From positions 1 to 64,000 of the IMG/VR virus record IMGVR_UViG_3300050343_000216: a stretch of 64,000 nucleotides of DNA, one strand, 5' to 3'. The notes beneath the pieces are model-generated. The model did not search any database and was not told where the DNA came from. It saw nothing but the letters and a program-made list of their open reading frames with translations. The number at the start of each line of letters is the position of its first letter. The first letter of the stretch is position 1. The DNA is from a virus. Of the stretch, positions 1 through 41,515 are shown one piece after another. The position numbers and the translations under genes were made by a program.

Positions 1-379
1 TTTCTTCATCGACCACGGCTATATTGACGTAGAAGAAAATGTGGAATAAAATAGTAAATTGGTGGTTGACACTAATAAAAGAAGAGTTTGAACTTACAGT
101 ATATTTTCTAGGTAAAATAGTAGAAGATGATAACGGAACAAAGAAATAACTACAGACCCTCAAACTTACCGTTGTAAAGCAATTAAAAAACTAACACCAA
201 CTCATATGATATTTATTGACCTCGATGGGCGAAAGCACGAGGTTAAAGTCGTTAATCCAGTAGGATATGAGCTAACAAAGATTTATTAGAGTCCGATCTC
301 TATAACTCGGTAACTAAGAACAGAGAATGCCGAAAGGGTTTCATAGTTGCGTACCGAATGGGCGCATAGGAGAAACAAA

Positions 380-799
380 ATGACAAAGCAAATGAACATT
401 AGTGATTTTCACAAATTCTTTTTAGGGTTCGATCGTATTGACCCTGATTTCTTTTCAAATGCCCCTATGACAGGGTATCCTCGATATAACGTATTGAAAG
501 TAGGAACAGAAGGCTATCGTGTAGAAGTCGCTGTACCTGGCTGGGAAAAGGACGATATCGAGATTACATTTGATAAGAATGAACTTCGTATTGAAGGTGT
601 AGCAAAGCAAGAAGTTTCAGACGAAGAAGAGTTTGTATATAAAGGTTTGAGTGGTAAAACTTTTACCAGAGTATTTAAAGTAGGATCAAACATTAAACTT
701 GATACTGCATACATGAAGAACGGACTTCTGTGTGTAGAGCTATATCAAGAGGTGCCCGAGGAGTCGAAGGCAAAGGTGGTAGAAATACATGATGCCTGA
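380..799 (+). CDS. hsp20: Small heat-shock protein (Hsp20/IbpA family)
   Basis: Alpha-crystallin motifs YPRYNV, YRVEVAVPGW, F.R.F, NGLL. ATG at 380 follows an AGGAGA RBS; the ORF track starts at 347. Confidence 0.93.
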   Translation: MTKQMNISDFHKFFLGFDRIDPDFFSNAPMTGYPRYNVLKVGTEGYRVEVAVPGWEKDDIEITFDKNELRIEGVAKQEVSDEEEFVYKGLSGKTFTRVFKVGSNIKLDTAYMKNGLLCVELYQEVPEESKAKVVEIHDA

Positions 800-899
800 G
801 ACCAAAAAACTCTTTCGACCTTTAAATACTTATGGAATCTATCTATTAAGTCTGTGGACGACCTGCACGTTAGTATTGTGCGTGGCATCCCTAGTATGA
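792..899 (+). CDS. Micro-ORF (35 aa) with one hydrophobic segment
   Basis: Read manually as MPETKKLFRPLNTYGIYLLSLWTTCTLVLCVASLV; overlaps the hsp20 stop and ends just before a terminator. Confidence 0.45.
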   Translation: MPETKKLFRPLNTYGIYLLSLWTTCTLVLCVASLV

Positions 900-906
900 C
901 TAGTCC

Positions 907-935
907 CTGCCCGAAGGAAACTTTGGGCAGTTTTT
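907..935 (+). terminator. Rho-independent terminator
   Basis: CTGCCCGAAG-GAAA-CTTTGGGCAG followed by TTTTT. Confidence 0.8.
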
Positions 936-945
936 AGGAACATAA

Positions 946-1338
946 ATGCCCTATTTAATTATTTTAATGCTTGTAGGTTCAATGGGCGGTGGAGCATTGT
1001 GGTACTATAAAGATACCCAAAGCACTATCGCAACACTACGAGATAACAATAGTAAACTTATGATGGTTGCAGAAACAAATCAAGAAACCATCAATTCAAT
1101 GGCTCGTGATTATCAATTAGCTCAAGAAAATATGTTAGTATTACAAGAAAGAGCTAAAGAAGCTGAAGAGTACCAAGATGAGTTAGCTTCTAAATTACGC
1201 CGTCACGACCTTACAGCCCTGACCTTGCAAAAACCAGGTCTTATCGAAAAGAGAGTTAATAATGCTACAGCTAAAATCTTTGATCAGCTCGAAGCCGATT
1301 CTGGCAAGCAGCCTACTATTACCGATAGCCCTAAGTAG
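946..1338 (+). CDS. Putative inner-membrane spanin (Rz-like)
   Basis: N-terminal TM helix, then a coiled coil with KPGLIEKRVN; overlaps a downstream lipoprotein gene. Confidence 0.7.
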   Translation: MPYLIILMLVGSMGGGALWYYKDTQSTIATLRDNNSKLMMVAETNQETINSMARDYQLAQENMLVLQERAKEAEEYQDELASKLRRHDLTALTLQKPGLIEKRVNNATAKIFDQLEADSGKQPTITDSPK

Positions 1339-1708
1339 TGGCTGTGCAAGTATTGAACCAGAAGTAGTTGTAAAGACGGATTATGTTGTAAAAGACATTC
1401 CGATACAACCACAACCAAAACCCCTTAATCTACATAGGGTTAAGTTCTATGCTGTAACACCTGAGAATATCGACGACTTTCTATTAAAGTTCGAGGAAGA
1501 AGCAGGTGTTAATGTATTCTTTGCTTTAAGTGTACCAGACTATGAGAATATGTCACTAAACGTAGCAGAGTTACGAAGATACATCAACCAACAAAAAGCA
1601 GTAATTTTATACTATGAAGACAGTATAAATACAATGATTCGAGAGACTCCAGAGGATAGTGAAGAAGTAGTCCAAGAAGGAACTCTCAATAAGCTATTAG
1701 AGTGGTAA
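1262..1708 (+). CDS. Putative outer-membrane spanin lipoprotein (Rz1-like)
   Basis: Lipobox LSSGC, Pro-rich segment, overlap with the i-spanin. Confidence 0.7.
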   Translation: MLQLKSLISSKPILASSLLLPIALSSGCASIEPEVVVKTDYVVKDIPIQPQPKPLNLHRVKFYAVTPENIDDFLLKFEEEAGVNVFFALSVPDYENMSLNVAELRRYINQQKAVILYYEDSINTMIRETPEDSEEVVQEGTLNKLLEW

Positions 1709-1712
1709 TACT

Positions 1713-1802
1713 ATGGAACTGATTGGAATTTTATGTATAATGATGTTGCCTCTTATAGCAGGTGGGATAACTTTTATATTAAGTGCAAAGGTAACAGAAT
1801 GA
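1713..1802 (+). CDS. Micro-ORF (29 aa) single-TM peptide
   Basis: MELIGILCIMMLPLIAGGITFILSAKVTE; ATGA overlap with the next micro-ORF. Confidence 0.5.
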   Translation: MELIGILCIMMLPLIAGGITFILSAKVTE

Positions 1803-1891
1803 CAGTGGCAGATGGTTTTTTAATTTTTTGGATGGTAATAGTACCAATTATGATGGCAGCAATGGCATATGGCGACAGAAAACCATCTTAA
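1799..1891 (+). CDS. Micro-ORF (30 aa) single-TM peptide
   Basis: MTVADGFLIFWMVIVPIMMAAMAYGDRKPS; translationally coupled to the previous ORF. Confidence 0.5.
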   Translation: MTVADGFLIFWMVIVPIMMAAMAYGDRKPS

Positions 1892-2024
1892 GGAGGTAGA
1901 TAAAACGTACCTCCAACATTTGTTAGGGGCCTGGAAAGTAGCATTTATACTACTTGTACACGGGCTTCTACCAAATGTATGGACTCATACAGCCAGTGAG
2001 ATGCTTAATGATGACACAGACTGA
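1869..2024 (+). CDS. Small His-containing membrane protein, DUF6356-like (51 aa)
   Basis: MATENHLKEVDKTYLQHLLGAWKVAFILLVHGLLPNVWTHTASEMLNDDTD; pattern HL..V..TY.QH...H..LP...TAS. Missed by the ORF track. Confidence 0.6.
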   Translation: MATENHLKEVDKTYLQHLLGAWKVAFILLVHGLLPNVWTHTASEMLNDDTD

Positions 2025-2589
2025 CTACTTTGCAAAGTCTATGACAAAGTTCTTTCGTTTCTTTGCAGATACATTCTTCGCAAAACGATACGGACATAGA
2101 GCAGTTGTTCTAGAAACAGTAGCAGGCGTTCCGGGAATGATAGCAGGAATGTTAGTGCATTTAAAAAGTTTAAGAACACATAAGAGAGGCTATGGGCCTA
2201 TCATACGAAGACTACTTGCAGAAGCAGAAAATGAGCGTATGCACCTTATGTTTTTTATCGAGATCGTAGAACCCAGCAAGCTGGAGCGGGGTCTCATCAT
2301 ACTGGCACAATTTTTATTCTGGCACTTTTACTTAGTAATGTATCTAATCTCTCCTCGCACAGCTCATATGATGACACATTATTTTGAGGAGGAAGCAGTA
2401 AAAAGTTACACAGAGTATTTAAGTTTAATAGAAAGTGGGCAAATTGAAAATGTCCCTGCACCAACTCTAGCCATAGAATACTACGGACTAGATGCAGATG
2501 CAAACCTATCTACTATGATAGAACGTATTCGCGCTGATGAAGCACATCACAGCAAAGTAAATTTGGAGTATGCCAATGTACTCAGATAA
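2008..2589 (+). CDS. aox: Alternative oxidase (ubiquinol oxidase, di-iron carboxylate)
   Basis: All four AOX iron-binding motifs: LETVA, NERMHL, FEEEA, RADEAHH. Likely start ATG 2008/2011. Confidence 0.95.
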   Translation: MMTQTDYFAKSMTKFFRFFADTFFAKRYGHRAVVLETVAGVPGMIAGMLVHLKSLRTHKRGYGPIIRRLLAEAENERMHLMFFIEIVEPSKLERGLIILAQFLFWHFYLVMYLISPRTAHMMTHYFEEEAVKSYTEYLSLIESGQIENVPAPTLAIEYYGLDADANLSTMIERIRADEAHHSKVNLEYANVLR

Positions 2590-2977
2590 GGTACTAGATC
2601 ATTATGAAAATCCCAGGAATGTCGGAAAACTTGACAAAAATGATGAAGATGTCGGAACGGGCCTCACAGGTGCTCCAGCATGTGGAGATGTCATGCAACT
2701 TCAAATCAGAGTATCGCCCGACGGAGTTATTGAAGATGCTAAATTCAAGACTTACGGATGCGGCAGTGCTATTGCTTCTTCATCACTACTCACTGAATGG
2801 GTTCGAGGAAAGTCCCTTGACGAGGCAGGAGAAATCAGCAATGTCCAAATTGCTCAAGAACTATCACTCCCGCCTGTAAAGATACATTGTAGCGTGCTGG
2901 CCGAAGACGCGATTAAAGCCGCAATTGCGGACTATAGGAGTAAACATGAAAGGAACTACTATGAAAAACAGAACTAA
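2570..2977 (+). CDS. iscU: Fe-S cluster scaffold IscU
   Basis: YSDKVLDHYENPRNVG, GAPACGDVM, FKTYGCGSAIAS, LPPVKIHCS: three Cys ligands plus the HscA-binding LPPVK motif. Confidence 0.97.
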   Translation: MPMYSDKVLDHYENPRNVGKLDKNDEDVGTGLTGAPACGDVMQLQIRVSPDGVIEDAKFKTYGCGSAIASSSLLTEWVRGKSLDEAGEISNVQIAQELSLPPVKIHCSVLAEDAIKAAIADYRSKHERNYYEKQN

Positions 2978-3686
2978 ACTCGGCGCTCTTGCGCTGTCCA
3001 CCGCTCTCGCCTGTGCGTTCGCATCGACCGCTCATGCAGGGGAATGGTCCGCAAATGCTTCGATGACCAGTAATTACATCTGGCGAGGGCTTACACAGAC
3101 AGAAAATGAAGCAGCCGTGCAGGGCGGTATTGATTACGCCTCGGACAGCGGCTTTTACATTGGCACCTGGGCTTCCAATGTGAACTATGGCCCGTCCGAT
3201 GTTTACTCTTACGAGCACGACGTATACGCAGGGTTTGCTTTTGATACCGGCGCGGTTAGCTGGGATGTGGGTTACCTCTATTACAACTACGACAAAGAAG
3301 CCAACTTCGACTTTGGCGAGGTTTATGTGGGCGCGGGTATTGGTGATTTCAGTGCAAAGTTTAACGTGCTGGCCAATACCGAAGCAGACGAGGCTGAGGG
3401 GCAGGATTTTGGGTTCGGCGAAGCCTATTACCTCTCATTGGACTATGGTTTTGAAGTCGGCGACGGTGTCGGTATTGGCCTGCACGTAGGACATCACGAT
3501 GGCGATTTTGCTGAAGCTTTTAACGGCAATGCTGAGGGTTATTACGATTACAACGTAACGGTCTCAAAGGGCGGCTTCACTTTTATGATTTCCGATACTG
3601 ATGTAAAAGGTGGAGCTGCAGAGGGTGGATACGACAACGATCAGATCAAATTTGTCGTCTCATACGCTGTTGATATCGCGCTCTGA
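2961..3686 (+). CDS. TorF-family (TIGR02001-like) putative outer-membrane porin
   Basis: Signal peptide ending AHA; SNYIWRGLTQT..AVQGGIDY..SGFYIGTWASNV; alternating beta strands; visibly higher GC than its neighbours. Confidence 0.85.
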   Translation: MKNRTKLGALALSTALACAFASTAHAGEWSANASMTSNYIWRGLTQTENEAAVQGGIDYASDSGFYIGTWASNVNYGPSDVYSYEHDVYAGFAFDTGAVSWDVGYLYYNYDKEANFDFGEVYVGAGIGDFSAKFNVLANTEADEAEGQDFGFGEAYYLSLDYGFEVGDGVGIGLHVGHHDGDFAEAFNGNAEGYYDYNVTVSKGGFTFMISDTDVKGGAAEGGYDNDQIKFVVSYAVDIAL

Positions 3687-3730
3687 AGGTGTGCGGTGAG
3701 AGCTTTAATATATAAGGCTAGGAAGATAGA

Positions 3731-4171
3731 ATGAATCGTGAAAGATTGTATGAAGAAATTAAAGCAGATGAAGGAGAAGTTCTTGAAATTTATAACGACC
3801 ACTTGGGCTACCCTACTTTCGGTGTCGGACACTTGGTCACGACAGAAGATGAAGAGCATGGAAAGCCTACCGGCACTCCCATTACGGCACAACGATCCAG
3901 GGAGTGCTTCGATAACGATGTTGTCACTGCCATTAAGGACTGCGAACGATTATACGGACAATGGCACAATTGGCCGGAAGAGGTGCAATTAGTAGTAGTA
4001 AATATGGCATTTAATCTGGGCGCTACGCGTCTTGCAAAATTTGTGAATTTTAAAAATATGCTGTCTCAAGGAAAGTGGAAAGAGGCAGCAGTAGAAGGTC
4101 GAGACTCTTTATGGTATCGACAAGTTACAAACCGAGCCGAGCGGCTCATGCGGAGATTAGAAGAAGTTTAG
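3731..4171 (+). CDS. Endolysin, T4-lysozyme-like (GH24)
   Basis: DEG...IYNDHLGYPTFGVGHL; NMAFNLG; DSLWYRQVTNRAERL. Confidence 0.9.
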   Translation: MNRERLYEEIKADEGEVLEIYNDHLGYPTFGVGHLVTTEDEEHGKPTGTPITAQRSRECFDNDVVTAIKDCERLYGQWHNWPEEVQLVVVNMAFNLGATRLAKFVNFKNMLSQGKWKEAAVEGRDSLWYRQVTNRAERLMRRLEEV

Positions 4172-4188
4172 TCTCCTTAGGAGAGAGA

Positions 4189-4593
4189 ATGAAGTATTTA
4201 CTAGGTCTGTTGGCTATTCTACCTATTTGTGTAGCTGCAGGAACTGTAATTAATTATGATGACGGCTCTACTTTAACACTTGAAGATAGCGAAAAGATTC
4301 ATGTAACAAAAGATACGCTATACCGTCAACAGAACTATAACAACGGAAGGACTATTCAATTCAAAGTATTCCCTGAAACTACTCGACGGGATTATGTAGA
4401 AATTGATAACGGTACAGATGACGACATGACCGTTGGTTCTCACGAATGGTGTAAAGCCTATGTACCTTGGTCAGAGGGTCTAACGTTTACTCAAGTCGCT
4501 TGGCAACGAGCCTGTGATACTAACAATAACGGCGTTTATGGCTGTGGGGACACAGGATACGATGCCTCTGATGATGCAGGAGTCTGCAACTAA
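4189..4593 (+). CDS. Exported protein of unknown function
   Basis: Signal peptide MKYLLGLLAILPICVAA after AGGAGAG; C-terminal Cys and a DTNNNG Ca-binding-like motif. Confidence 0.7.
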   Translation: MKYLLGLLAILPICVAAGTVINYDDGSTLTLEDSEKIHVTKDTLYRQQNYNNGRTIQFKVFPETTRRDYVEIDNGTDDDMTVGSHEWCKAYVPWSEGLTFTQVAWQRACDTNNNGVYGCGDTGYDASDDAGVCN

Positions 4594-4594
4594 T

Positions 4595-4795
4595 ATGAAA
4601 GATTACATGGTTACTTTCGAAAAAAATGGATATAAAAAATATACAAGATTCAGTGAGTTTGATAGCGCAATAAATTTTGCAGAGCACATGGCAATAGTTT
4701 ATCATTCATCTGTAGAGGTACGAACGTACACTACTGATGAACTTGTACATAGTGTAGACGCTAAAATAACTCTTGACAAAGAGCTTGTAGTTTAG
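4595..4795 (+). CDS. Hypothetical protein
   Basis: ATG immediately after the upstream stop; ORF in the track. Confidence 0.55.
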   Translation: MKDYMVTFEKNGYKKYTRFSEFDSAINFAEHMAIVYHSSVEVRTYTTDELVHSVDAKITLDKELVV

Positions 4796-4801
4796 TATAA
4801 T
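4773..4801 (+). promoter_or_regulatory. Sigma70 promoter
   Basis: TTGACA-17 bp-TATAAT preceded by AAAATAACTC. Confidence 0.88.
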
Positions 4802-4823
4802 ATATAAAATTTTCGGAGTAACC

Positions 4824-5420
4824 ATGAATTTATTTTACCTTGACGAAAATCTCGACAAGTGTGCAGAAGCCCATGTCGATAAACATATTGTAAAAATGCC
4901 TTTGGAAGTTGCACAGATACTATGTACTTGTATCTGGATAGACAATCTCCTGGGGTTTGTTCCTCGCGCTCTTACCAAAGAAGAGAATGCTATCCTGAAT
5001 GAAGCCAAAGCTCCAGAGAAGCCTCTTAAACCTGAAGAGCGTACTGTTACTCCGTACCTGCCGATGATGTACAATCATCCTTGCACAATTTGGGCGAGAA
5101 GCTCACTCGATAATTTCGAGTGGACTCATTGTTATGGAAACGCACTTGGAGAAGAATACAGATATAGATATGGAAAACAACACAAATCAGTTACAGTTAT
5201 CAATGAATTACCCGAGCCAAAGCATTTTGAACGAGTGGGGTTCACCACGTTCGGACTTGCGATGCCTGAAATCCTCAAAGACTATGACAACCCTATACAG
5301 TCTTATCGTGACTACTATCATCTCGATAAGGCTACTTTTGCCGCTTGGTCTCACAGACCAGCTCCCAGTTGGTGGGATGAGTCTCTTGCTGACTATGAAC
5401 AGAGGATCACAGCGAAATGA
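4824..5420 (+). CDS. Pyrimidine-dimer DNA glycosylase/endonuclease V-like protein
   Basis: MNLFYLD...HVDKHIVKMPLEVAQILCT; NHPCTIWAR; EYRYRYGKQHKS; SYRDYY. Confidence 0.8.
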   Translation: MNLFYLDENLDKCAEAHVDKHIVKMPLEVAQILCTCIWIDNLLGFVPRALTKEENAILNEAKAPEKPLKPEERTVTPYLPMMYNHPCTIWARSSLDNFEWTHCYGNALGEEYRYRYGKQHKSVTVINELPEPKHFERVGFTTFGLAMPEILKDYDNPIQSYRDYYHLDKATFAAWSHRPAPSWWDESLADYEQRITAK

Positions 5421-5578
5421 GCGATGATGTATGCCCAAAGTGTGGTGAGTTTCTAACAGGAGATGGGTATAGTAATGGAGATCCTGTACGATGCCCTAAC
5501 GCTTTAGAAGAAGATTGGTGGTATAGTGAACCAGATAGTGGGCCTTGGTACTGTAATTTTGAAGAGGAAGAAGAATGA
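5417..5578 (+). CDS. Small Cys-rich acidic protein (53 aa)
   Basis: MSDDVCPKCGEFLTGDGYSNGDPVRCPNALEEDWWYSEPDSGPWYCNFEEEEE; ATGA overlaps on both sides. Confidence 0.65.
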   Translation: MSDDVCPKCGEFLTGDGYSNGDPVRCPNALEEDWWYSEPDSGPWYCNFEEEEE

Positions 5579-5925
5579 CAGATAGTGTAAACAAGCCTCC
5601 GCATTATACAGCACACCCAAGCGGAGTAGAGTGTATACAAATTACAGAGCACATGAACTTCTGCCTGGGTAACGCTACAAAGTATATATGGCGAGCAGGA
5701 CTTAAACAGAATGAAGTAGAAGACCTAAAGAAAGCTGTGTGGTATATTAACAGAGAAATAGAGAGGATTGAGAATGGTCAAGAAGAGAGACTACGAGAAC
5801 CTAAGCCCCGAGAACGTACAGAAAGTGAAAGACCTTCTAAACCCTTCGGACGGATCGAAGGCGATAACAAAGAAAGAGGCTTGCGGAATCCTGAATATTT
5901 CGTACAATACAGCGAGACTCTCTAA
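5575..5925 (+). CDS. DUF3310 family protein (T7 gp1.7 nucleotide kinase-like)
   Basis: DSVNKPPHY, ECIQI, FCLGNATKYIWRAGLK, EDLKKAVWYI. Confidence 0.85.
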   Translation: MTDSVNKPPHYTAHPSGVECIQITEHMNFCLGNATKYIWRAGLKQNEVEDLKKAVWYINREIERIENGQEERLREPKPRERTESERPSKPFGRIEGDNKERGLRNPEYFVQYSETL

Positions 5926-6484
5926 GATTATAGAGGACTATGATGAAAGAACCGCATATGTACAACTACGAAAATCTCAAAATAGAGGTAAAGGCGCCAG
6001 CGAAATGGAAATCGCAGAGGTCATTCGAGATTACTTATCGGGGGATTCAATTGCAGCCATCGCCAAGTCTTTATACAGATCCTCCGGATTTGTCAAATCC
6101 ATTGTGGAAAGAGTCGGTATCCCTAGTCGAGGCGTATCTAAAGAAGAACGGACTGAAGTAGGATACCTACCTGAAGAGTGTATAGCAGAAGATTTCAAAG
6201 TTGGACAAATTGTATGGTCTGCTAGGCATCATGCTCCTGCAGAAATTTGTCAAGAGCTTTCAATACACTATCAAGCAGAACGTGCTGGGTTTAAAGATAC
6301 AAACTATGAAAAGAAGTATGGTGCAAAATGCTATACAATATGGGTAAGAGAGCCTTTCGATACTGACAGAGAGTTCTGGATTAGTGGTATAGAGACTGGA
6401 GGATTCTTTGCAAGTTCTCTAGCGTATGACCTGGGTTCCCTAGAGCATTTAGAAAAATACGGAGTTGACTTCTCACGTTTATAA
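5774..6484 (+). CDS. T5 D2-like DNA-binding protein
   Basis: ITKKEACGILNISYNTARL HTH-like segment; position upstream of D3, ligase and D5 as in T5. Confidence 0.7.
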   Translation: MVKKRDYENLSPENVQKVKDLLNPSDGSKAITKKEACGILNISYNTARLSKIIEDYDERTAYVQLRKSQNRGKGASEMEIAEVIRDYLSGDSIAAIAKSLYRSSGFVKSIVERVGIPSRGVSKEERTEVGYLPEECIAEDFKVGQIVWSARHHAPAEICQELSIHYQAERAGFKDTNYEKKYGAKCYTIWVREPFDTDREFWISGIETGGFFASSLAYDLGSLEHLEKYGVDFSRL

Positions 6485-6493
6485 AAATATTTC

Positions 6494-6522
6494 TTGACAA
6501 CTTCCTTATATTGAAGTATAAT
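6494..6522 (+). promoter_or_regulatory. Sigma70 promoter
   Basis: TTGACA-17-TATAAT preceded by AAAAATATTTC. Confidence 0.88.
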
Positions 6523-6547
6523 ATAATTTCAAAAGTGAGGGAACCAA

Positions 6548-6993
6548 TGGGCGACCGATTTTATCAACAACAACTTAACCGCTTGGGTACTTGCCCAGGT
6601 TCAAAACAACCAAAGAGGAAACGAAGAATGGCATGGGATGACGACAAGAAGGCTCAGGCAGTATCAATGTATGAAGAGCAAGAGCCTACCCCCGAAACTA
6701 GCATGGAGATTGTCAAAGCAATCGCAGAAGACCTAGAAGAATCTCCAAATGGCGTTCGTATGATTCTTACCAAAGCTGGCGTATACGTTAAGAAAACCCC
6801 TGCAGCCGGTGGAGCTACTAAAGCTGCTGGCGGTACTGGAGGCGGTCGAGTATCAAAAGCTGCTGCTCAAGAAGCCTTGATTGCTGCACTCTCAGACGCT
6901 GGACAAGAAGTAGACGAAGACGTAGTTTCAAAACTAACTGGTAAAGCCGCTCAATACTTTACTGGAGTTATTGGTAACGTAGCCAGTAACTAA
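6548..6993 (+). CDS. T5 D3-like protein
   Basis: MAWDDDKK...ETSMEIVKAIAE...SPNGVRMILTKAGVYVKK. Start is approximate: near 6548 or at 6628. Confidence 0.7.
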
Positions 6994-7006
6994 TTAATTT
7001 TTACTT

Positions 7007-7035
7007 AAACCACTCTCTTAGCGGAGAGTGGTTTT
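7007..7035 (+). terminator. Rho-independent terminator
   Basis: AAACCACTCTC-loop-GAGAGTGGTTTT after D3. Confidence 0.8.
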
Positions 7036-7109
7036 CTGCTATCTGGAAAAAGAACCTTAGAGTTCGGCAAAGTAAAAAATTTTACTGACCTGCTACCTAA
7101 GGAGTACTT

Positions 7110-7376
7110 GTGAAAAAAGAAGATCTAGCAGACCTTGTAAAGGATTGCGGTGACGCAATAATTACTTATCGGAGTGAAAACTCAAATAAGTTAAAGTATA
7201 ATGTATGTACCCTGGATTTTTCCACTCCGTATATACAAGACAAGAAGAACAGAGCCAAAGAATCTGATAGCACTTTGCTATTATTTTGCTGGGATACTGA
7301 TTCTTATCGTCTACTAAAACCAGAGAATGTTACTAGTGTAATACCTCTTGCTTCCGTTTTGCAGAATGAGAGGTAG
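7110..7376 (+). CDS. Small protein, possible SH3/WYL_2-like fold
   Basis: GTG start after AAGGAG; the FCWDTDSYR..K.ENV motif resembles DUF2693/WYL_2. Confidence 0.6.
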   Translation: MKKEDLADLVKDCGDAIITYRSENSNKLKYNVCTLDFSTPYIQDKKNRAKESDSTLLLFCWDTDSYRLLKPENVTSVIPLASVLQNER

Positions 7377-7381
7377 TATCT

Positions 7382-7684
7382 ATGTTACTACATGAAGCTC
7401 CAGAAATGTATGAAAAAGTCATTCACTACGATGAAGACAAAGAAGTACAAGTACGGCTCACTGTAAGTGCCTTTAGGGGTGTAGAATATTTACATCTTCG
7501 TAAATACTATTTAGATTTTAACGAAGAATGGAAACCTACACCAGAAGGAGTAGCTATGCCACTAGACTTCAACAACTCTAGGGAACTATTTGTTGGTCTA
7601 ACTGAAATACTATCTCTAGCTGAGAGCAAAGAGATAATAGAAGAGCAGTTCCAGGACCTGATAGATAACCTTTACTTAAAATAG
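7382..7684 (+). CDS. PC4/transcriptional coactivator p15-like ssDNA-binding protein
   Basis: VSAFRGVEYLHLRKYY...EWKPTPEGVAM. Confidence 0.8.
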   Translation: MLLHEAPEMYEKVIHYDEDKEVQVRLTVSAFRGVEYLHLRKYYLDFNEEWKPTPEGVAMPLDFNNSRELFVGLTEILSLAESKEIIEEQFQDLIDNLYLK

Positions 7685-7687
7685 TTC

Positions 7688-7716
7688 TTGACAATTTCCT
7701 AAAACTTTAGTATAAT
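7688..7716 (+). promoter_or_regulatory. Sigma70 promoter
   Basis: TTGACA-17-TATAAT preceded by AAAATAGTTC. Confidence 0.88.
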
Positions 7717-7740
7717 ATCTTTTCAAATTTGGGAGATAGT

Positions 7741-8664
7741 ATGCGTGAATTTCTTGAAAAAGCGAGTATTGCTTACTTCTCGGGGTATCCTATAATCTCC
7801 GACAGTGAGTTTGATGCGTTAGTAAAAAAGTATAACTACGATCAAGTGGGCTATCAGGTAACTGATGGAGTTCCACATATGTATCGTATGTACTCTTTAC
7901 AAAAGTTTTTCAATCTTGCAGAAGCTCCTACTAACTTAACGGACTATGTAGTTAGCCCTAAGTTAGACGGTGCCGCAGTGTCTTTACTATATGTAAATGG
8001 TCACTTGGCACTTGGATTGACTCGTGGGGACGGTAATCTTGGCCGAGAGATTACCGACAAACTCGAAACACTAGTCCCTCGTACTATTCCCTTGAAGGGA
8101 GAAGTACAGATTACTGGTGAAGTAGTTTGCCCCTCGAATGTCACCAATGCGAGAAATGTCGCAGCGGGGTCACTTAATCTCAAGGATCTGGCCGAGTTTC
8201 GTACTCGACCACTGACTTTTGTGGCCTATGATATGCAGGGTGTTCGTCACTCTACATATACTGAGACACTTTCTTTCTTGGCCCAGGAAGGATTTAACAC
8301 AGTAGATACCTTCGACTACAGTAACTATCCTACGGATGGTATTGTATATCGTATAGACTGTACTAATTCCTTCAATAAACTGGGACATACAGCCCACCAT
8401 CCTCGTGGCGCTTTTGCTCTCAAAGAGCAGAAGGAGGGTATGTATACAGAATTGCTCGATGTTGTGTGGCAAGTTGGTAAATCTGGGGTAGTCAGCCCAG
8501 TAGCCATACTTGATCCTGTCGAAGTGGAAGGCGCTCTTGTGAGCAGGGCTACTCTACACAACATTGAGTACATTCGCTCCTTAGAACTAGAAATTGGTTG
8601 CACTGTAGAAGTTATTCGTAGTGGAGAAATTATCCCTCGAATTTTACGACGTGTTGACCTTTGA
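7741..8664 (+). CDS. ligA: NAD-dependent DNA ligase, subunit A (adenylation and OB domains)
   Basis: KLDG active site, TRGDG, RN.AAGSL, DGIV, VGKSG, RATLHN, RSGEIIPRI. Confidence 0.93.
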   Translation: MREFLEKASIAYFSGYPIISDSEFDALVKKYNYDQVGYQVTDGVPHMYRMYSLQKFFNLAEAPTNLTDYVVSPKLDGAAVSLLYVNGHLALGLTRGDGNLGREITDKLETLVPRTIPLKGEVQITGEVVCPSNVTNARNVAAGSLNLKDLAEFRTRPLTFVAYDMQGVRHSTYTETLSFLAQEGFNTVDTFDYSNYPTDGIVYRIDCTNSFNKLGHTAHHPRGAFALKEQKEGMYTELLDVVWQVGKSGVVSPVAILDPVEVEGALVSRATLHNIEYIRSLELEIGCTVEVIRSGEIIPRILRRVDL

Positions 8665-12597: not shown

Positions 12598-13424
12598 TGA
12601 ACGTAGAAGAATTATTACAATCTAAACAAGTTGAGTATATACCGAAGGGCAAAGACTATGTAGTATCGTGTCTAAGTCCTGAGCATGATGATACTAATCC
12701 CAGTATGAGAGTAGATCAAATTACTGGGATCTTTCACTGTTTCTCTTGTGGTTACAAGGGGAATTTGTTTGTGCATTTTGGAGAAAGGGCAAGTTTTCTA
12801 CACTTACGCAGGGAACTTCTAAAGAAAAAAATTCGTGAAAAGAGAGCTGAAAGTGTGGGCTTGCCCTTTCCTCAAAGTGCATTACCTTATGTAGGAAACT
12901 GGAGAAATATAAAGCCAGAGACTTATCGTAAGTTTGAAGTTTTTCAGGATCATGACGCCTTTGTTGGTAGAATAGTATTTCCTGTTCGTGATATTTCTGG
13001 AAAAATTGTAGCATTTAATGCAAGACATATGACAGGAGGTACTCCAAAGTACCTTATTAGCCCTCCTGGGGCACGAATGCCTCTGTATCCTGCTAAAGTA
13101 GAGCCGATACAGGGCAGTGTTATTCTCGTAGAAGGAATCTACGATATGGTAAATCTGCATGATAAAGGGTTAACAAATGCAGTATGTTGTTTTGGCACAA
13201 GGAATATTAATGAAGATAAGCTATCTATTCTTAGACTACAAGGAGTAGAGCGCGCAGTGATCTTCTTTGACGGTGATGAAGCAGGACAGTCCGCCGCTGT
13301 AAATGTAAAGGATATGTGTGAGCGAATAGACTTACTAACAGTAAATGTAAATATTCCTGATACAGACCCAGGAGGACTAACAGAAGCACAGGTAGATAAA
13401 CTAAAGAAAAAACTATACGCATAG
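12597..13424 (+). CDS. DNA primase (CHC2 Zn finger and TOPRIM)
   Basis: CLSPEHDDTNPS...FHCFSCG; VEGIYD; FDGDEAG; DPG. Confidence 0.92.
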   Translation: MNVEELLQSKQVEYIPKGKDYVVSCLSPEHDDTNPSMRVDQITGIFHCFSCGYKGNLFVHFGERASFLHLRRELLKKKIREKRAESVGLPFPQSALPYVGNWRNIKPETYRKFEVFQDHDAFVGRIVFPVRDISGKIVAFNARHMTGGTPKYLISPPGARMPLYPAKVEPIQGSVILVEGIYDMVNLHDKGLTNAVCCFGTRNINEDKLSILRLQGVERAVIFFDGDEAGQSAAVNVKDMCERIDLLTVNVNIPDTDPGGLTEAQVDKLKKKLYA

Positions 13425-13434
13425 GAGTATGTAC

Positions 13435-15717
13435 ATGACGAGCCCAAGGGTTGCTCTAATAGAAACCAAACCAAGCAGAACCAACTTTAAAACAGAATTT
13501 GACCACGCTTTTGACTTTGACCAGTATCAGTTATGTTCTGATCCTACTCTTAAAAAAGTACTCAAGCGAGACTGCGATATTCAGATATGAACCCAGACTG
13601 TATGACTGGATTATTCTTAGTAGGCTCTGACGCTATGAAGTATTACACTAAAATTACTTCTGTTACAGAGTACTCAGGCAAAAAAGTAGAAAGCAAGTAC
13701 TTACCTAGTAATCAATCCAGCTATGCTGGCATTTAAGCCAGAAGCTAAAGAATACTTGGGAGTCTTCAAAAGAAAGTATTCATTGGGTACATCAAAGGCG
13801 AAATCGAAGAGGTAGTATTATAGATGATAGTATTGCATTCGGTATTCAAGATACGGAGGAAGCAAATGAATTTATTCGGGCTGCAATCGCAGACATGAAT
13901 GTAAGTATATTGCATTCGATTCTGAGACTACTGGACTCTACCCTCGTGATGGGTATATGCTTGGTATCTCTTTCTTATGAATAAAAGGCGCTTACATTGA
14001 TACAGATTGTTTTGATGCGAGAACTGAACAACTGCTACAACAATTGTTTGATGAAAAGACAGTAGTATTTCACAATGCAAAGTTTGATATGGCATTCTTT
14101 GAGTACCACTTTAACTTTAAGTTTCCAAACTTTGAAGACACCATGTTGCTCCATTACCTCATAGACGAGAATCCTGGAGGGCACGGTCTCAAAGCAGTTA
14201 CTTTCTTTAAAGTTTACTCCTTATGGAGATTACGAAAAGCCAATGTATGATTGGATTGACCAGTACAGAAAAGAAACTGGGTATTTTGAAGGGAGACTTT
14301 CAATGGGAGTCAATTCCTTTTGATGTAATGAAAACATATGCAGCTATGGATGCTTTATGTACTTTTTCTTAATTTACGAGAAGTTTGTAAAAATCAAGCA
14401 AAACAAAAACTGGCTTGGGTATACGATAATATTCTTATTCCAGGAACTAGATTTCTAACAGATACACAAGATAATGGTGTGCCTTTCGATAGAATACGTT
14501 TTAAAAGTCTCAAGTGCTAATGCAGCATGATATCGATGAAGCTATTGAAACTATATGAAAATCGAAAAATACGGAAGTTTGAAGAGATAAAAATGGAAGG
14601 ACTTTTAATCCGAATAGTACTGTGCAACTTCGTAAGCTTGTTATTTGATATGCTTCGGACTTCAACCTACTGGCAAAAAGACAGGTACAGGTGCAGACTC
14701 TACAGATGCGGAAGTGCTGAAAGAGCTCTCAGTTCAGAATGTACCGAAACTCATTCTGGATATTCGTCAAAAATCTAAGATTAAGAATACTTATCTTGAT
14801 AAGATTATACCTCAACTGGATCGAGATTCTAGCGTTTAAGGACAAACTTTAATCTGCATGGTACTACTTCTGGACGTCTTATCTAGTGGTAAGTTAAATA
14901 TGCAGCAGTTGCCTCGAGAGACAATCCTATTGTAAAAGGATGTATTAAAGCAGCAGAAGGTCATAAAATTGTTGCAATGGATTTAACTACAGCAGAGGTA
15001 TATGTTGCTGCAAAACTTGCGAACGATGAAGCACTGATGAATGTATTTCGTAGCGGTGGTAACTTTCACAGTACGATTGCGAACAACAGTATTCAAACTT
15101 CCTTGCGATGTAGAGAGAAGTCGCAGAGCTATACTCCGACACAACGTCAAGCTGCAAAAGCAGTAACATTTGGTATTATGTATGGCGCTGGGCCGAAAAG
15201 ATTAGTGAACAAGTTACTAAAGATTCTGGAACCTACTTTAGCCAGCAAGAGGCAAAAGAAGTTATTGATGACTATTTTAAGTCTTTCCACAAACTAAAAA
15301 GTGGATTGATGATAATCAGAAGTTTATTGAACAAAATGGGTTTATATATAGTTTCTTTGGCCGTAAAAGGAGATTACCTAATGTTCAAAGACCGACGCAG
15401 GCATCAAGAGTCATAGCATTCGTTCTGGTCTTAATTTTTTGGTTCAGTCTGCTGCTTCTGATATCAACCTTCTAGGAGCTATTGATATGGGAGAGTTTAT
15501 AAAGTCTCAAGGCATGAAGGCAAGAATCTTTGCACTTGTACATGACTCAATCCTTGCAGAAGTACCAGACGACGAGATAGACTTTTATTCAGAAGTTTTG
15601 GAAAAGTTTATACAATTAGACAGAGGAATCTCTATATCAGGCGCTCCAGTAGGGTGTGACTTTGAAGTTGGAGAGGACTACTCTATGGGTAAGTTTGAAA
15701 AAATGTATGAACAGTGA
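13435..15717 (+). CDS. pol: T5-like family A DNA polymerase, broken by many indels (probably sequence errors)
   Basis: Fragments show FDSETTGL (ExoI), HNAKFD, GTTSGR, DLTTAEV (motif A), RQAAKAVTFGIMYG (motif B) and VHDS (motif C); T5-like N-terminus. Confidence 0.9.
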
Positions 15718-18012: not shown

Positions 18013-18607
18013 ATGGCATTAAGCTTTAACAAATCAAAGGGTTCCGCTCAAAAATCAAGTTCGTCTCGTAGGCGACATTCTCGCTCGATACGTTATTGGA
18101 TTAAAGGTGAGAATGATAAGAACATTCCTTTGGAGTGTCTTTCTTTTGACCGTAACAAAGAAGAGCTTTTAACAATCTAGAGAAAGATTGGGTTCGTGAA
18201 TACTATCCCGATCTTAAGTGTGGCTGGAGCTACGCTATGCAGTGCATTGACAATGGCGAAGTAAAAGTTGTAAACCTCAAGAAGAAGTTGTGGGAGCAAA
18301 TCTTACTGCTGCAGAAGATTTAGGCGATCCTACTGATCCTGAAACAGGCTGGGATGTTATGTTCAAGCGTGTAAAGACTGGCCCTCTGCCCTACAATGTA
18401 GAGTATCAGTTACAAGTATTAAAGTGCAAGCCTCGTGCTTTAGACGATGACGAGAGCTGCTGTTGCAGAAGCTCTGAAGTCTATGGATGATGTTATGCCT
18501 CGTCCTACTCCAGATGCTCAAAAAGAGCTTCTTGATCGTGTTCGTGAAGAGATACGGGTGAAATTGACGATTGACGAAAGCATTGAAGATGAGTTCAAGA
18601 TTCATGA
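18013..18607 (+). CDS. T5 D11-like ssDNA-binding protein (frameshifted)
   Basis: MALSFNKSKG; WIKGENDKNIPLECLSFDR; DLGDPTDPETGWDV.FKRVKTGP; acidic tail. Confidence 0.75.
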
Positions 18608-19571
18608 TTTTATTTACGGCAGACTGGCACATAAAGCTAGGACAAAAGAATGTCCACGAGAGTGGGCATTAAACCGTACAATGCGTTATTTTTTGAGCAG
18701 ATACATACTCTCTCGAAAAGCAGTGCAATATGCACATTATTGGTGGAGATCTTTTTGACCGTCTGCCGAACATGGAAGAGTTGGAGCTTTACTTTTCGTT
18801 TATTCGGAAGTAAAGATTCCAACTATTATCTATGACGGTAATCATGAAGCTACAAAGAAAGAACAAAACTTTTTTACTCAGTTAAAGCAAGTTTCTAGAG
18901 ATATTAACCCTTTAGTACATATAGTAGATATTTCGTATATAGATAAAGACTTAGGGTTTGGTATATTGCCCTATGCAGATCTTACATAGAAAGGATAGTA
19001 TTGAAAGTTTGAATAAAAGCAAGCCTTTGTTTACTCATGTTCGAGGAGAGATACCTCCCTCATGTAAAGCCAGAGGTAGACTTAGACAGATTTGAGGATT
19101 TTCCAGTAGTATTTGCAGGTGATCTACATGCTCATAGCAATACTCAAAGAAATATTGTATACCCAGGTAGTCCTATGACAACTTCGTTTCATAGAAAAGA
19201 AGTCTCAGACAGGGTACCTTTTAATTAATCCAACTGATTGGAGCTTGGATGTGGGATGCTTTTGAACTTGCCCCAGCTTATACGAAAAACTGTTCAATCT
19301 CCAGAAGATATGATTCCTACAGATTATCATCATACTATCTATGAGATAGAAGGTGATATACAAGAGCTGGCAAATGTAGAAGAACTCAGAATTACTGGAT
19401 AAAAAAGTAATAAAACGAAAGTCAGAAGCAACTCTTAGTAATGGATAAAGAGATGACATTCAAGAAGAGCTAGTAGAGTACTTAACCTATATCTTAGAAT
19501 ACCAGAAGTACAAATACCAGAATATAGTAGGGACTATTTAATGATTACGCTCAAAAATTGAAATGGAGTAA
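18604..19571 (+). CDS. T5 D12-like SbcD/Mre11 nuclease (frameshifted)
   Basis: MILFTADWHIKLG, GGDLFD, GNHE, AGDLHAH, YPGSP. Confidence 0.85.
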
Positions 19572-21018
19572 CTGTTTTAGCTACGGGCCCGATAATGAGC
19601 TGGATTTAAGAGTAATACAGTAACTCAAATAATTGGTACTAACGGTATGGGGAAGTCCTCCATACCGTTAATTATTGAAGAAGTTTTTACAACAAGAACT
19701 CAAAAGGTATTAAAAAAGCAGATATACCAAACCGGTATGTAAATAATGGATATAATATCACCTAGAGTTTACAAAAGACGGAAATAAATATGAGTTATTA
19801 TTGATAGAAAGTCTAATATTAAAGTGCAGATTAGAGAAGAATGGAGAAGATATCTCTAGTCATACAGCGACAAATACTTATAAAACTTGCAAGAATTATT
19901 GGTATTGACTTCAAAACCTTCTCTCAGTTAGTATATCAAAATACAAATGCAAGTTTACAGTTTCTTAACTGCTACAGATACTAACAGTAAAAAGTTTCTG
20001 ATAGATCTTGTTGCACTTAGATGCTTATGTAAATTTATTTGAAGTATTTAAAGAGGCTTCTCAAAAGAGTCTTCTCGTTGAATTGCTGCGTAATACGTTC
20101 GGAAATTGCAACTATTGAAAAGTGGTTGTCAAACGATAACAAATTGAAAGATACTCCATACTTCCTCTGTTGGATTTAGAAATCGATACGGAAGAAGATG
20201 AGAAGTCTTTCCGTTCTTTATCAGTAGAAATTAAAAATATCTCCGAAAAAAATAAAAAAATTATACAAAATAATCAGTAGCAAAGAGACTGGGAGGAGCT
20301 TTACAGAAGCATTAATAGAGATCTGCCAATGGCCAGCTTGGATAAAGGAGAGCTCGAAGAGCGCCTGGCAGGAGTACGAGCTGAGTTGGTTTCGATGCAA
20401 AAGTCTGTGGCGGAAGCAGCAGCGGAAAATGAAAGAAGAACGAAGCAAAACACAAGAATCCAAGTAATACAAGAACAAACAGATAGTTTTATTTCACAGT
20501 TAGAAGAAGCACAAGAGTCTTTAGATAAAGTAGAAAGTGTATATTCTAACTTGGAAGTGTTAAAGAAAGCATTTAGCACAAACGGCTTAATTGCTTACAA
20601 GATCGAAAATCTAGTAAAGGAACTCGAAGAATTAGTAAACACTTATCTTGGAGAACTTTCAGACGGGCGTTTTACCCTTGAATTTGTTGTAAGTAATGAT
20701 AAGCTAAACGTGCAAATAACAGACAATGGAAACATTGTCGATATTCTTGCTCTTTCTTCTGGAGAGTTGGCAAGAGTAAACACCGCTACTCTTATAGCTA
20801 TTCGTAAGCTAATGAGTAGTATTTCTAAGTCACGAATCAATATTCTTTTCTTAGATGAAGTCATAAACGTACTCGATGAGACAGGTAGAGAAAAGCTAGT
20901 AGAAGTTTTACTAGGCGAAGAGAATCTAAATACCTATGTAGTCAGTCACGGTTGGACTCATCCTTTGCTTGAGAAGATTGAAGTAGTAAAGCGAGAAAAT
21001 GTGGTTGAGATAGATTAG
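19541..21018 (+). CDS. T5 D13-like SbcC/Rad50 ATPase (frameshifted, apparent internal deletion)
   Basis: GTNGMGKSS Walker A; LSSGE signature; LFLDE Walker B; VSH. Confidence 0.85.
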
Positions 21019-21445
21019 AGCAAAAGGTGCTAGAGGTGAGTATCTAGTAAGAGATATGTTACGAGAGAGCACCGACTGGTTTCAGTTTGAGAGAGTGCCT
21101 AATCTCAGGAGCTCTTGAATACTTAAAAGGGGACTTATATGTACCTCATGAGAAAGAATAGATTTTGTATAGAAGTAAAAAACTATGAAAGTCTCCTCTT
21201 CAGATAAAATATTTACAGCAAAAAAGACAAATAATCTAATAACTTGGTGGAAAAAACTTATTACAACAAGCAAAGGCGGAATCAAGAGCCCTTATTATTT
21301 TTCAAGTATAATCGATCCCCAGTATTTGTAGTTACAAATCTAGCCTGAAGATACATCTTGTAAATAGTGGATGTTATACAATTTTTAGACTGTTATGTAT
21401 TACTAGCAGAAGACTTGGTTAAAGAATGAAAAGTGGAGTTTTTAA
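21001..21445 (+). CDS. T5 D14-like resolvase/endonuclease (frameshifted)
   Basis: RAKGARGE, KGDLY, IEVKNY fragments (PD-(D/E)xK-like). Confidence 0.7.
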
Positions 21446-22273
21446 ATGGCATTTAATTTAACAGAAAGAAATTATAAATCCAAGTGTCCCAAACCACTCT
21501 TATAGTAGATGCTTTAAACCTAGCGTTTCGATGGAAGCATCAAGGACGTACAGATTTTCGATATGACTATCAACGAACTGTAGAGTCCTTAGCAAAATCT
21601 TATGATTGTAAGAAATTATTATTACAGCAGACTGGGGCTCTTCTTCTTATAGAAAAGGCATAAGCCCTGAATATAAACAGAATAGAAAAGAAAAGTTCGC
21701 AGACCAACAGAAGAAGAAAAATTGCTTTTGAAGAGTTCTTTGAAGAGTATGAAGCCTCCCTAGAAGTACTAGAAGAAGAAGGATACCCCATACTTAGATA
21801 TAAGGAGTAGAGGCAGACGATATTGCAGCACACTTAGTAAAAGAAAAGAAAAGTATGGATTAGAGTATATTTGGCTTATTTCTAGTGACCGAGACTGGGA
21901 TCTTACTTAATACAAGAAAATGTAGGCCGATTTTCTTATGTAACGAGGAAGGAAGTTACGCTTAGATAACTGGTCAGACACACTATGAATGTTACTCCAG
22001 AAGAGTATATATCTTTAAAATGTCTTACAGGAGATAAAGGAGATAATGTTCCAGGTATTCCTGGTATTGGCCCAAAAAGAGCGTAGATTTAATTAAACAG
22101 TATGGAGATGCGTTGATATTTATGATGCTTGCCCATACCTAGCAAGTATAAGTATATTCAAGCGTTGAATGAAAATGCAGAACAGATACTTACAGAACTA
22201 CGAATTGATGGATTTAATAACATATTGTGATGATGCAATAGGAGCTGATAATATTCAGATATAAGGAGATTAA
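21446..22273 (+). CDS. T5 D15-like 5'-3' flap exonuclease (frameshifted)
   Basis: VDALNLAFRW, YKQNR, EADDIAA, SSDRDW, GDKGDNVPGIPGIG. Confidence 0.85.
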
Positions 22274-41117: not shown

Positions 41118-41515
41118 GCTTCATAAACTCTTCTAAATTGAGAGGATAAACTATAGACTTCATCATTAGTGTAAGAAATACTGTAACTATCGCAGACTAC
41201 TTTTACTGTATCTTCTCCAATATGAAAAGTAAAAGAACTAGGCTGCTGATCATCTAAAAAATCAGCGATTGTATCTATTTCTGCTTTTGGTCTGTTTCTA
41301 AAAGAAACGTCATAAGTTTCCTCTATATTATTTATACCGTCTAAAATTCTTTGCTCGTAACCATCACCGAACTTAGCCGAAAGAACTCTCCTAGAAGTTG
41401 TTCTCCCTACTCCTTTATCAAGAACGGCATTACTAGTATTACTTGAGCCGCTTGAGTATCCGCTCGAAAGACTATTTGCTGTGACTGTTTTTATTACAAT
41501 TTTAAAGTCTGCCAT
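41114..41515 (-). CDS. Distal tail protein (lambda gpM-like)
   Basis: AKFGDGYEQRILDGINN...FRRVYE. Confidence 0.85.
   Translation of the reverse strand: MADFKIVIKTVTANSLSSGYSSGSSNTSNAVLDKGVGRTTSRRVLSAKFGDGYEQRILDGINNIEETYDVSFRNRPKAEIDTIADFLDDQQPSSFTFHIGEDTVKVVCDSYSISYTNDEVYSLSSQFRRVYEA

Follow-up and report, generated by a model that had tools for sequence, protein, structure and literature searches.

Iron- and respiration-related genes between the spanin and endolysin genes of a distantly T5-related marine phage: a probable accretion island

Why should a phage carry an alternative oxidase (AOX), an Fe-S scaffold protein (IscU) and a host-like outer-membrane protein (TorF) between the genes for its spanins and the gene for its endolysin? 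The question is raised by the IMG/VR virus record IMGVR_UViG_3300050343_000216, a linear contig of 75,299 bp estimated to be 78% complete, of which the first 64 kb (positions 1 to 64,000, referred to as the window) were analyzed. A first-pass annotation, made from the letters alone, had described a packed run of two transmembrane (TM) micro-ORFs (open reading frames), a DUF6356 protein, AOX, IscU and TorF between the spanins and the endolysin, and had read this run as one module transcribed together with the lysis genes late in infection and perhaps modulating the time of lysis. ORF calls and family scans (PHROG, Pfam and TIGRFAM profiles) recover every named gene at the position given by that annotation (Table 1). 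From the spanins to TorF, successive genes overlap by 4-32 nt or are spaced by 4 nt (77-nt overlap in the spanin pair), and the sole real gap in the block is the 44 nt ahead of the endolysin gene lys.

We propose that the block is probably an accretion island of auxiliary metabolic genes or morons for iron and respiration, located in an early-type operon of an uncultured marine T5-related siphovirus, expressed by read-through and serving the supply of cofactors and electron flow. Auxiliary-gene islands and morons are already known as a kind; what is new here is a changeable iron/respiration island between spanin and endolysin. Nothing in the present data shows that the island controls lysis.

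Gene content of the site in related phages

IMG/VR was scanned with the endolysin, which gave 252 relatives, and 80 loci were kept; the window proteins were placed on these loci by tblastn and ORFs were read in the gaps left uncovered. Thirty-five distinct contigs, not de-replicated, contain lys together with an anchor upstream of it, either hsp20 or o-spanin. Between the two anchors IscU is present in 31 and DUF6356 in 30 of the 35 contigs, AOX in 12 and TorF in two. The extra genes of the relatives occupy the same gene boundaries: a lipoprotein cytochrome c between DUF6356 and AOX (4/35; PF00034, 1.5e-10), an IscA-type carrier between IscU or TorF and lys (3/35; PF01521, 4.9e-13, and TIGR00049 above cut-off), and a 2-oxoglutarate (2OG)-Fe(II) oxygenase (1/35; PF13640). 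In four contigs the site is empty and the spanin gene adjoins lys at a distance of 65-212 nt; these contigs have no tm1, tm2 or DUF6356 (tm1 and tm2 being the two TM micro-ORFs), so the three small genes are counted as cargo and not as lysis machinery. The stop codon of IscU touches or overlaps the start of lys in most of the contigs, and relatives have TM ORFs with an AWYGDK-like end motif at the position of tm2. The IscU frame lacks its usual stop in three contigs (L020 432-1064, L030 1060-1692 and L032 6376-7008), where it extends to 210 aa and crosses the lys start in another frame.

The genes at this site are of host type, vary among close relatives and have no promoter or terminator of their own, as is expected of morons and auxiliary islands. 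The site is a hotspot carrying a mosaic of genes independently gained and lost, not the single module of the first-pass annotation: IscU and DUF6356 are old, AOX is intermediate in age and TorF is very recent. That annotation had also allowed that relatives might carry unrelated random cargo here, and the synteny comparison speaks otherwise, because the relatives carry the same or thematically related cargo. The theme is narrow, i.e., Fe-S assembly, di-iron, haem and Fe(II) enzymes.

The DUF6356-IscU pair is the conserved core of the site, old and strongly constrained. IscU (220.3 bits to TIGR01999, cut-off 192.4) is the most conserved gene of the region, with 87-97% identity where lys shows 74-89%, and C38, D40, C64, H106, C107 and the LPPVK motif are invariant in 13 phage sequences; the window protein is 80% identical to IscU of a Luminiphilus metagenome-assembled genome (MAG). 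DUF6356 is the conserved partner of IscU across the phage family, with invariant H6, H17 and H31 and an HGLxP motif, and the two genes remain adjacent in L071/L073, where they are located 7 kb from lys. DUF6356 was detected in two of 61 Halieaceae genomes searched, in neither case near AOX or isc genes, a result that is uninformative.

The alternative oxidase and the captured porin

By its sequence, the oxidase is best assigned to the AOX type rather than the PTOX type. It scores 221.6 bits to PF01786 (cut-off 22.7), matches the solved mitochondrial (trypanosomal) AOX at E = 4e-36, and has all six di-iron ligands (E, ExxH, E, ExxH) in the aligned segments LET, NERMH, EEEA and RADEAHH. The motifs ERMHLMT and LEEEA are listed in the PASV preprint as diagnostic of AOX and not of PTOX; the window protein has ERMHLMF and FEEEA, with one conservative change in each, and its match to the PTOX PHROG is weak (E = 0.0087). 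AOX is under-described in phages, although marine viral contigs commonly carry it: relatives are encoded by at least 234 IMG/VR stretches, some of them on contigs of 146-250 kb, while a single one of 50,697 GenBank phage records includes such a gene (C48C1, where the protein is annotated as hypothetical), and in the searchable open literature a phage AOX is reported for one cyanophage only. No T5-like phage among these GenBank records matched AOX, this IscU or full-length TorF, in agreement with the first-pass annotation, which knew of no such arrangement in described T5-like phages.

Among 201 Halieaceae genomes searched, 17 encode AOX, at no more than 71% identity to the window protein, and in Luminiphilus MAGs the AOX gene is not preceded by DUF6356. 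The AOX donor is not nameable, because the best 120 homologues are nearly all unnamed metagenomic proteins, the best named one being a 'Saprospirales' MAG protein (71%). In a FastTree phylogeny the copies of the T5 family form one clade, with L041 apart. AOX was probably gained once and long ago in the phage family, at an age intermediate between IscU/DUF6356 and TorF, and kept in about one-third of the contigs. In the same tree, small-genome Luminiphilus-like MAGs (L238, L239 and L246-L249) are placed inside a mainly viral radiation, away from the large-genome Halieaceae, and this placement hints at exchange of AOX between viruses and hosts.

We know of no tested function for the TorF/Gcw_chp family. 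The window protein scores 149.6 bits to TIGR02001 (cut-off 47.15) and 90 bits to PF09694 (cut-off 24), and the Pfam entry for Gcw_chp describes a bacterial protein of unknown function. The predicted structure (pLDDT, a model confidence score, 81.5) consists of an N-terminal signal peptide helix and a 12-strand barrel whose nearest folds in Foldseek are the KdgM, NanC, Tsx and intimin barrels (TM-scores 0.49-0.55), and we regard TorF as a putative porin.

The torF gene is a porin ORF that was captured from the host very recently. The GC content of the TorF region is 0.50-0.53, compared with ~0.34-0.46 in the segments next to it, and the best bacterial matches are in Luminiphilus/Halieaceae MAGs (96% in amino acids, 94-95% in nucleotides). 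In these MAGs torF is a solitary gene, with an FKBP isomerase gene on one side and gshA on the other, and is followed by a GC-rich hairpin and a T-run, read here as its terminator. When the window is aligned with its TorF-less sibling L006 (~98-99% identical), homology extends to 2947 (99.3%) and resumes at 3749 (98.4%), leaving 801 nt in the window where L006 has 17 nt. The host-like part of this tract is 2951-3694, i.e., the host ribosome-binding site (RBS), the ORF and 8 further bases, without the terminator; the remaining 54 nt carry a new RBS for lys and the first 6 lys codons. As a result of the insertion, the lys RBS of L006 now precedes an in-frame upstream ATG of TorF, IscU is longer by 9 codons and reads into the insert, and lys has a new RBS and begins with MNRERL instead of MNIDKL. 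TorF was found in only four IMG/VR contigs belonging to two phage lineages. Contig L028 has the same left junction and the same IscU tail in spite of a lys that is only 82% identical in DNA and 84% in protein, which suggests that TorF was captured once and then spread from phage to phage by recombination.

The alleles of torF add a further layer to this history. The window and contig L004 differ at 27 positions in 3022-3685, at 11 in 5-2947 and at none in 3686-5529. Two alleles from host MAGs, L154 and L155, differ from each other at 48 sites; among these, the window allele matches L154 at 26 sites and L155 at 18, the L004 and L003 alleles match them at 11 and 34 sites, and the L028 allele at 9 and 35. 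Nearly all differences among the phage copies fall on such host-polymorphic sites, with one private change each in the window, L004 and L003, and the changes common to all phage copies are located almost wholly in the signal peptide. The ratio of nonsynonymous to synonymous substitution rates (dN/dS) is 0.04-0.09, also between phage copies. This pattern fits one capture after which alleles were exchanged repeatedly with the host; alternatively, the assembler may have mixed reads from phage and host, and the presence of both variant TorF paths at high depth in virome X1 argues somewhat against such mixing. The TorF case provides a base-by-base view of how a bare host ORF was captured into a phage operon and then spread between lineages, and it hints at continuing allele exchange between the phage copy and host genes. 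In one RNA-library run (X15) a contig matches 3057-3684 at 96% to TorF and then runs on for 531 nt that do not resemble the window; this contig probably represents the TorF transcript of the host itself, and host and phage may therefore co-occur in that sample.

Transcription of the block and the lysis genes

Table 1. Features of the spanin-endolysin region, in window coordinates, with the evidence for each.
Feature	Position	Strand	Evidence
tm54, 3' end (last 15 codons)	2..46	+	L004 ORF 2592-2756 matches by tblastn, 93%
Small heat-shock protein, Hsp20/IbpA-like (hsp20)	347..799	+	PF00011 1.2e-14; phrog_432 2.3e-32
orf789, 36-aa single-TM micro-ORF overlapping the hsp20 stop	789..899	+	ORF; homologues in relatives 45-97%, same place
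Hairpin and T-run, intrinsic terminator or attenuator, between hsp20 unit and spanins	907..930	+	Scan, folding
i-spanin, Rz-like	946..1338	+	phrog_739 6.5e-14; N-terminal TM segment
o-spanin, Rz1-like lipoprotein	1262..1708	+	phrog_812 3.7e-12; lipobox LSSGC; 77-nt overlap with i-spanin
tm1, 29-aa single-TM protein	1713..1802	+	ORF; 66-90% homologues in distant subgroups
tm2, 30-aa single-TM protein	1799..1891	+	Sequence; ATGA overlap with tm1
DUF6356 small protein	1869..2024	+	PF19883 4.7e-10, above cut-off
AOX, di-iron ubiquinol oxidase type	2008..2589	+	PF01786 1.2e-65
IscU, Fe-S scaffold	2570..2977	+	TIGR01999 above equivalog cut-off
Inserted tract, 801 nt, bearing TorF	2948..3748	+	Comparison with TorF-less sibling L006
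TorF/Gcw_chp, putative outer-membrane porin	2961..3686, alternative start 2946	+	TIGR02001 150 bits vs 47
lys, GH24 (T4-lysozyme-type) endolysin	3731..4171	+	PF00959 36.9 bits vs 22.3; phrog_7 4.4e-18
Secreted protein, same unit as lys	4189..4593	+	ORF, signal-peptide-like N-terminus; no family match
Next perfect sigma-70 consensus promoter, opening the following unit	4773..4801	+	12/12 match

As in the first-pass annotation, a consensus scan of 946-4171 gave no terminator-like site on the + strand, and promoter matches did not exceed 9/12; the two 9/12 matches inside this interval are at chance level. Contig L004, which is 99.2% identical to the window in DNA over 5-6471 and reaches 2.7 kb further left, contains two perfect 12/12 divergent sigma-70 promoters at 2522-2550(+) and 2478-2450(-); the + promoter is located ~160-190 nt to the left of window base 1, and the next perfect + promoter after it is the one at window 4773. 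The operon would accordingly read left sigma-70 promoter, tm54, orf83 (an 83-aa ORF), hsp20, orf789, leaky hairpin, spanins, cargo, endolysin and secreted protein, and would end before the promoter at 4773. The hairpin at 907-930 (-20.3 kcal/mol, z = -4.7), 16 nt ahead of the i-spanin start, looks functional, since eight other relatives keep a hairpin and T-run at the same place with different stem sequences. No recognizable promoter lies between this hairpin and the i-spanin start, and with the hairpin present the simplest reading would be that the spanin-cargo-endolysin block is transcribed by read-through. The cargo would enter at gene boundaries as bare ORFs that bring neither promoter nor terminator, and would therefore be expressed by read-through together with the lysis genes. 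To the left of the window, the L004 contig encodes at 1693-2266 (-) a MazG-like protein and a 68-aa protein read as ribosomal protein S21-like, divergent from the operon promoter region, and further left a 504-aa lipoprotein that resembles a zinc metalloprotease.

Fourteen DNA runs contain ~85% of the sampled words of 300-4800, and six RNA-library runs from four studies contain 16-45% of them. Contigs from RNA libraries reach across the hairpin (303-1425), from the spanins into AOX (1101-2258) and from TorF into lys (3540-3951), and these are compatible with one transcript and with read-through. In runs X16/X17 RNA-contig cover is missing for parts of the window, and in two studies the RNA contigs stop near 880-977; such gaps and ends are those of contigs and are no evidence of transcript boundaries. 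Co-transcription with the lysis genes, as annotated in the first pass, is plausible rather than proven: the layout fits one transcript and several junctions are bridged by RNA-library contigs. Late expression is doubtful, since the only strong upstream promoter is an early-type perfect sigma-70 consensus. A second variable site was noticed at window 6472, just before a perfect promoter at 6494; there L003 (4310-4993) has ~684 extra bases and L004 (beyond 9179) diverges from the window.

The spanin genes form an overlapping pair, with a TM segment at the N-terminus of the i-spanin and a lipobox in the o-spanin. The endolysin has no signal or signal-arrest-release segment, and a DEG...ND...PTFG pattern read in its sequence corresponds to the Glu-Asp-Thr triad of T4 lysozyme. 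No holin family match was obtained for tm1, tm2, DUF6356, tm54, orf83 or the secreted protein (4189-4593), the T5-type holin (phrog_860) was not found in the 75-kb record, and the endolysin is not adjoined by an identified holin as it would be in a complete lysis cassette. The 54-aa single-TM protein tm54, encoded by the first gene after the left promoter, has no PHROG or Pfam match. Every subgroup conserves it downstream of the divergent promoters, contigs without cargo (empty-site L062) included, and because it is kept even where all cargo is missing we consider it the best holin candidate, unproven and chosen by position and conservation only. In one subgroup (L015, L028, L029, L032, L036, L044, L049 and L120) no spanin pair is detectable after hsp20; in its place (e.g., L028 4826-5610) there are a 30-aa Cys-rich TM ORF, a peptidase of ~165 aa and a 47-aa TM/Cys-rich ORF. 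The peptidase scores below the Pfam cut-off (21.4 vs 25 bits) and is hence called M15-like only; with it, this subgroup would have two muralytic enzymes.

Function of the island, host and relation to known systems

In the explanation that we favor, the phage would supply iron-cofactor and respiratory parts that are short-lived or limiting. Fe-S clusters would come from IscU and IscA, AOX and cytochrome c would allow quinol oxidation and electron flow to continue, and the supply of energy and cofactors would be sustained once host gene expression falls; the lysis genes would be the neighbors of the cargo and not its targets. The coherent cargo (IscU, IscA, AOX, cytochrome c and 2OG-Fe(II) oxygenase) suggests that the bottleneck which these phages relieve in the host is iron and electron flow. 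Several points count against this explanation or the data behind it. The 35 contigs were not de-replicated and the fractions given above are descriptive only, and the AOX tree was midpoint-rooted and read without support values. A sigma-70 scan would miss T5-type late promoters, and RNA-library contigs cannot prove a single transcript, carry-over of DNA being possible. TorF is outside the iron/respiration theme and may be a passenger, and among ten early-region ORFs scanned there is no phage-encoded Fe-S client protein. The call of the host depends on one captured gene and on moderate similarity of IscU (80%) and AOX (69-71%).

The site could also be a plain insertion hotspot, tolerant because it lies between dispensable or robustly expressed genes, with mostly neutral passengers and with recent arrivals, TorF above all, that bring no benefit and will be lost. 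Empty sites and variable content are in keeping with this, as are the presence or absence of TorF among phages ~98-99% identical, its restriction to four contigs of two lineages, and the further variable site nearby at 6472. Neutrality suits TorF best and fails for IscU and AOX: the cargo is narrow (Fe-S, di-iron, haem, Fe(II) oxygenase) instead of random, IscU is under strong constraint, and AOX forms one clade that has been retained in subgroups whose lys genes differ by 16-26%. TorF itself has a low dN/dS, phage copies included, and was passed between phage lineages with its junction intact, and for the island at large we judge neutrality unlikely. For TorF there is the additional, rather improbable, suggestion that the host protein is the receptor or needs masking, so that a phage copy, matched in allele by recombination, would serve superinfection exclusion or protection of progeny. 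Tsx is a phage receptor, and T5 Llp and the PA-2 Lc porin are precedents of phage genes acting on their own receptor. TorF has a fold like that of Tsx and other small specific channels, its mature form hardly differs from the host protein, with the differences concentrated in the signal peptide, and the phage alleles differ at host-polymorphic sites with a single private change each. Most relatives, however, have no TorF, and assembler mixing within a 95%-identical stretch would mimic mosaic alleles. A wholesale artifact, in which an assembler joined host DNA bearing TorF or the entire block to a phage, is scarcely credible. TorF has host-like GC and 94-95% DNA identity to host genes, and the Logan contigs of run X1 break inside it, but the same junctions recur in IMG/VR contigs from three other samples (L003-L005) and in another lineage of phages, both junctions are spanned by X1 contigs whose depth (121-131x) is that of the phage, an X16 RNA-library contig bridges TorF to lys, and an X15 contig shows the TorF-less junction with the exact 17 letters. 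The insert is an ORF only, joined in frame with the tail of IscU and with the RBS of the phage lys. In their GC content AOX and IscU resemble the phage, and their identity to host copies reaches 71% and 80% at most. The host-DNA chimera against which the first-pass annotation had cautioned is thus excluded by independent assemblies across both junctions.

That annotation had also suggested modulation of lysis timing, on the ground that holin triggering depends on the proton-motive force and AOX is non-protonmotive. In a fuller form of this idea, AOX and the small membrane proteins would lower or sense the proton-motive force so that holin triggering and the time of lysis follow respiration. 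Such a clock would explain why the cargo is nested between spanins and endolysin and probably co-expressed with them, and why three to four conserved micro membrane proteins adjoin AOX; in C48C1, moreover, IscU is 1.2 kb upstream of the endolysin, and several other AOX-bearing phage types have spanin or lysozyme genes within 5-8 kb. It is difficult to reconcile with the relatives, since 23 of the 35 contigs lack AOX and keep the same spanins and endolysin, and four lack the whole cargo, tm1, tm2 and DUF6356 included. Elsewhere AOX does not adjoin lysis genes, most AOX-bearing viral loci having none within 8 kb; next to AOX no holin could be identified, the best candidate being located 1.7 kb upstream, and the record yielded no T5-type holin. 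We regard the clock as quite improbable. The same low standing is given to a more elaborate scheme, a phage-run respiratory branch in which lipoprotein cytochrome c and AOX are fed by phage IscU/IscA and in which attenuator read-through on the spanin/endolysin transcript ties membrane energization to lysis time in photoheterotrophic Luminiphilus. An accretion island supplying cofactors and electron flow is the explanation that we retain.

The phage may reasonably be called T5-related, though distantly, because its terminase (49%) and ligase A (45%) find their best matches in T5-like phages, whose genomes are 112-122 kb, and because the genes downstream of the lysis region are replication genes. 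A tail-fibre gene and a DNA-binding gene have other affinities, and a nucleotide search of 1-8000 against GenBank phages returned short, distant matches only. No lysogeny genes are shown in the region studied. The probable host is Luminiphilus/Halieaceae (OM60/NOR5 clade), since the captured torF is ~94-95% identical in DNA to genes of such MAGs; a captured ~95%-identical gene thereby provides a large family of T5-related phages, marine and uncultured, with a probable host. The window stretch is contained in seawater viromes from many studies of 2019-2025. No DNA polymerase ORF was seen within the 64-kb window, and three intervals of ~2.2 kb each in the replication region (13400-15700, 18200-20300 and 21000-23300) have no ORF longer than ~110 aa. 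The contig may carry single-base indel errors: an A-run near 136 is one base shorter in the window than in L004, L008 and L031, which splits orf83, upstream of hsp20, into 39-149 and 206-289, and an extra C after 340 is present in all four sequencing runs compared with the window. Because of these indels near 136/340, long genes in the replication region are possibly broken.

Several known systems resemble the island in part. The lom gene of lambda and the Lc porin of PA-2 are, like torF, host-type outer-membrane beta-barrel genes in a phage operon; they are expressed from the prophage, whereas torF is without its own promoter or terminator and ~95% identical in DNA to the host copy. The PTOX of cyanophages is likewise a phage-borne di-iron quinol oxidase (PF01786) and is thought to act as an electron safety valve in infection; the window enzyme differs in being of the AOX type, in a T5-related phage of a hetero- or photoheterotrophic gammaproteobacterium, and in adjoining IscU. 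Phage C48C1 (OQ984149, Kyanoviridae, 156 kb; L001/L261 in our set) shares with the window phage a close AOX (65%, at 26279-26830) and a close IscU (81.5%, at 40804-41175), the latter upstream of a SleB-type endolysin, but it is a T4-like myovirus with AOX and IscU 14 kb apart and without DUF6356 or TorF. Among the auxiliary genes already known from marine viruses are IscU and A-type carriers (Nishimura et al. 2017, PMC5332604), and in that study, as here, gammaproteobacterial-type IscU/IscA-like genes of uncultured marine phages were read as Fe-S auxiliary genes; no oxidase is mentioned there. In the present family, unlike in that study, IscU is fixed throughout a T5-related family, has DUF6356 as its partner, is linked to the start of the endolysin gene and has AOX, cytochrome c or TorF at its side. 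T5.025/T5.026 were considered as the spanins of T5; they match only PHROGs of unknown function, and a comparison of lys-spanin separation with T5 was dropped. Phage T5 has, like the window phage, its lysis genes in the early region with strong sigma-70 promoters. In T5 these genes form a tight unit of holin and M15 peptidase with its own promoter and terminator, whereas the window phage, in which no T5-type holin was found, has a GH24 endolysin and keeps its spanins and endolysin 2 kb apart, with host-type cargo between them.

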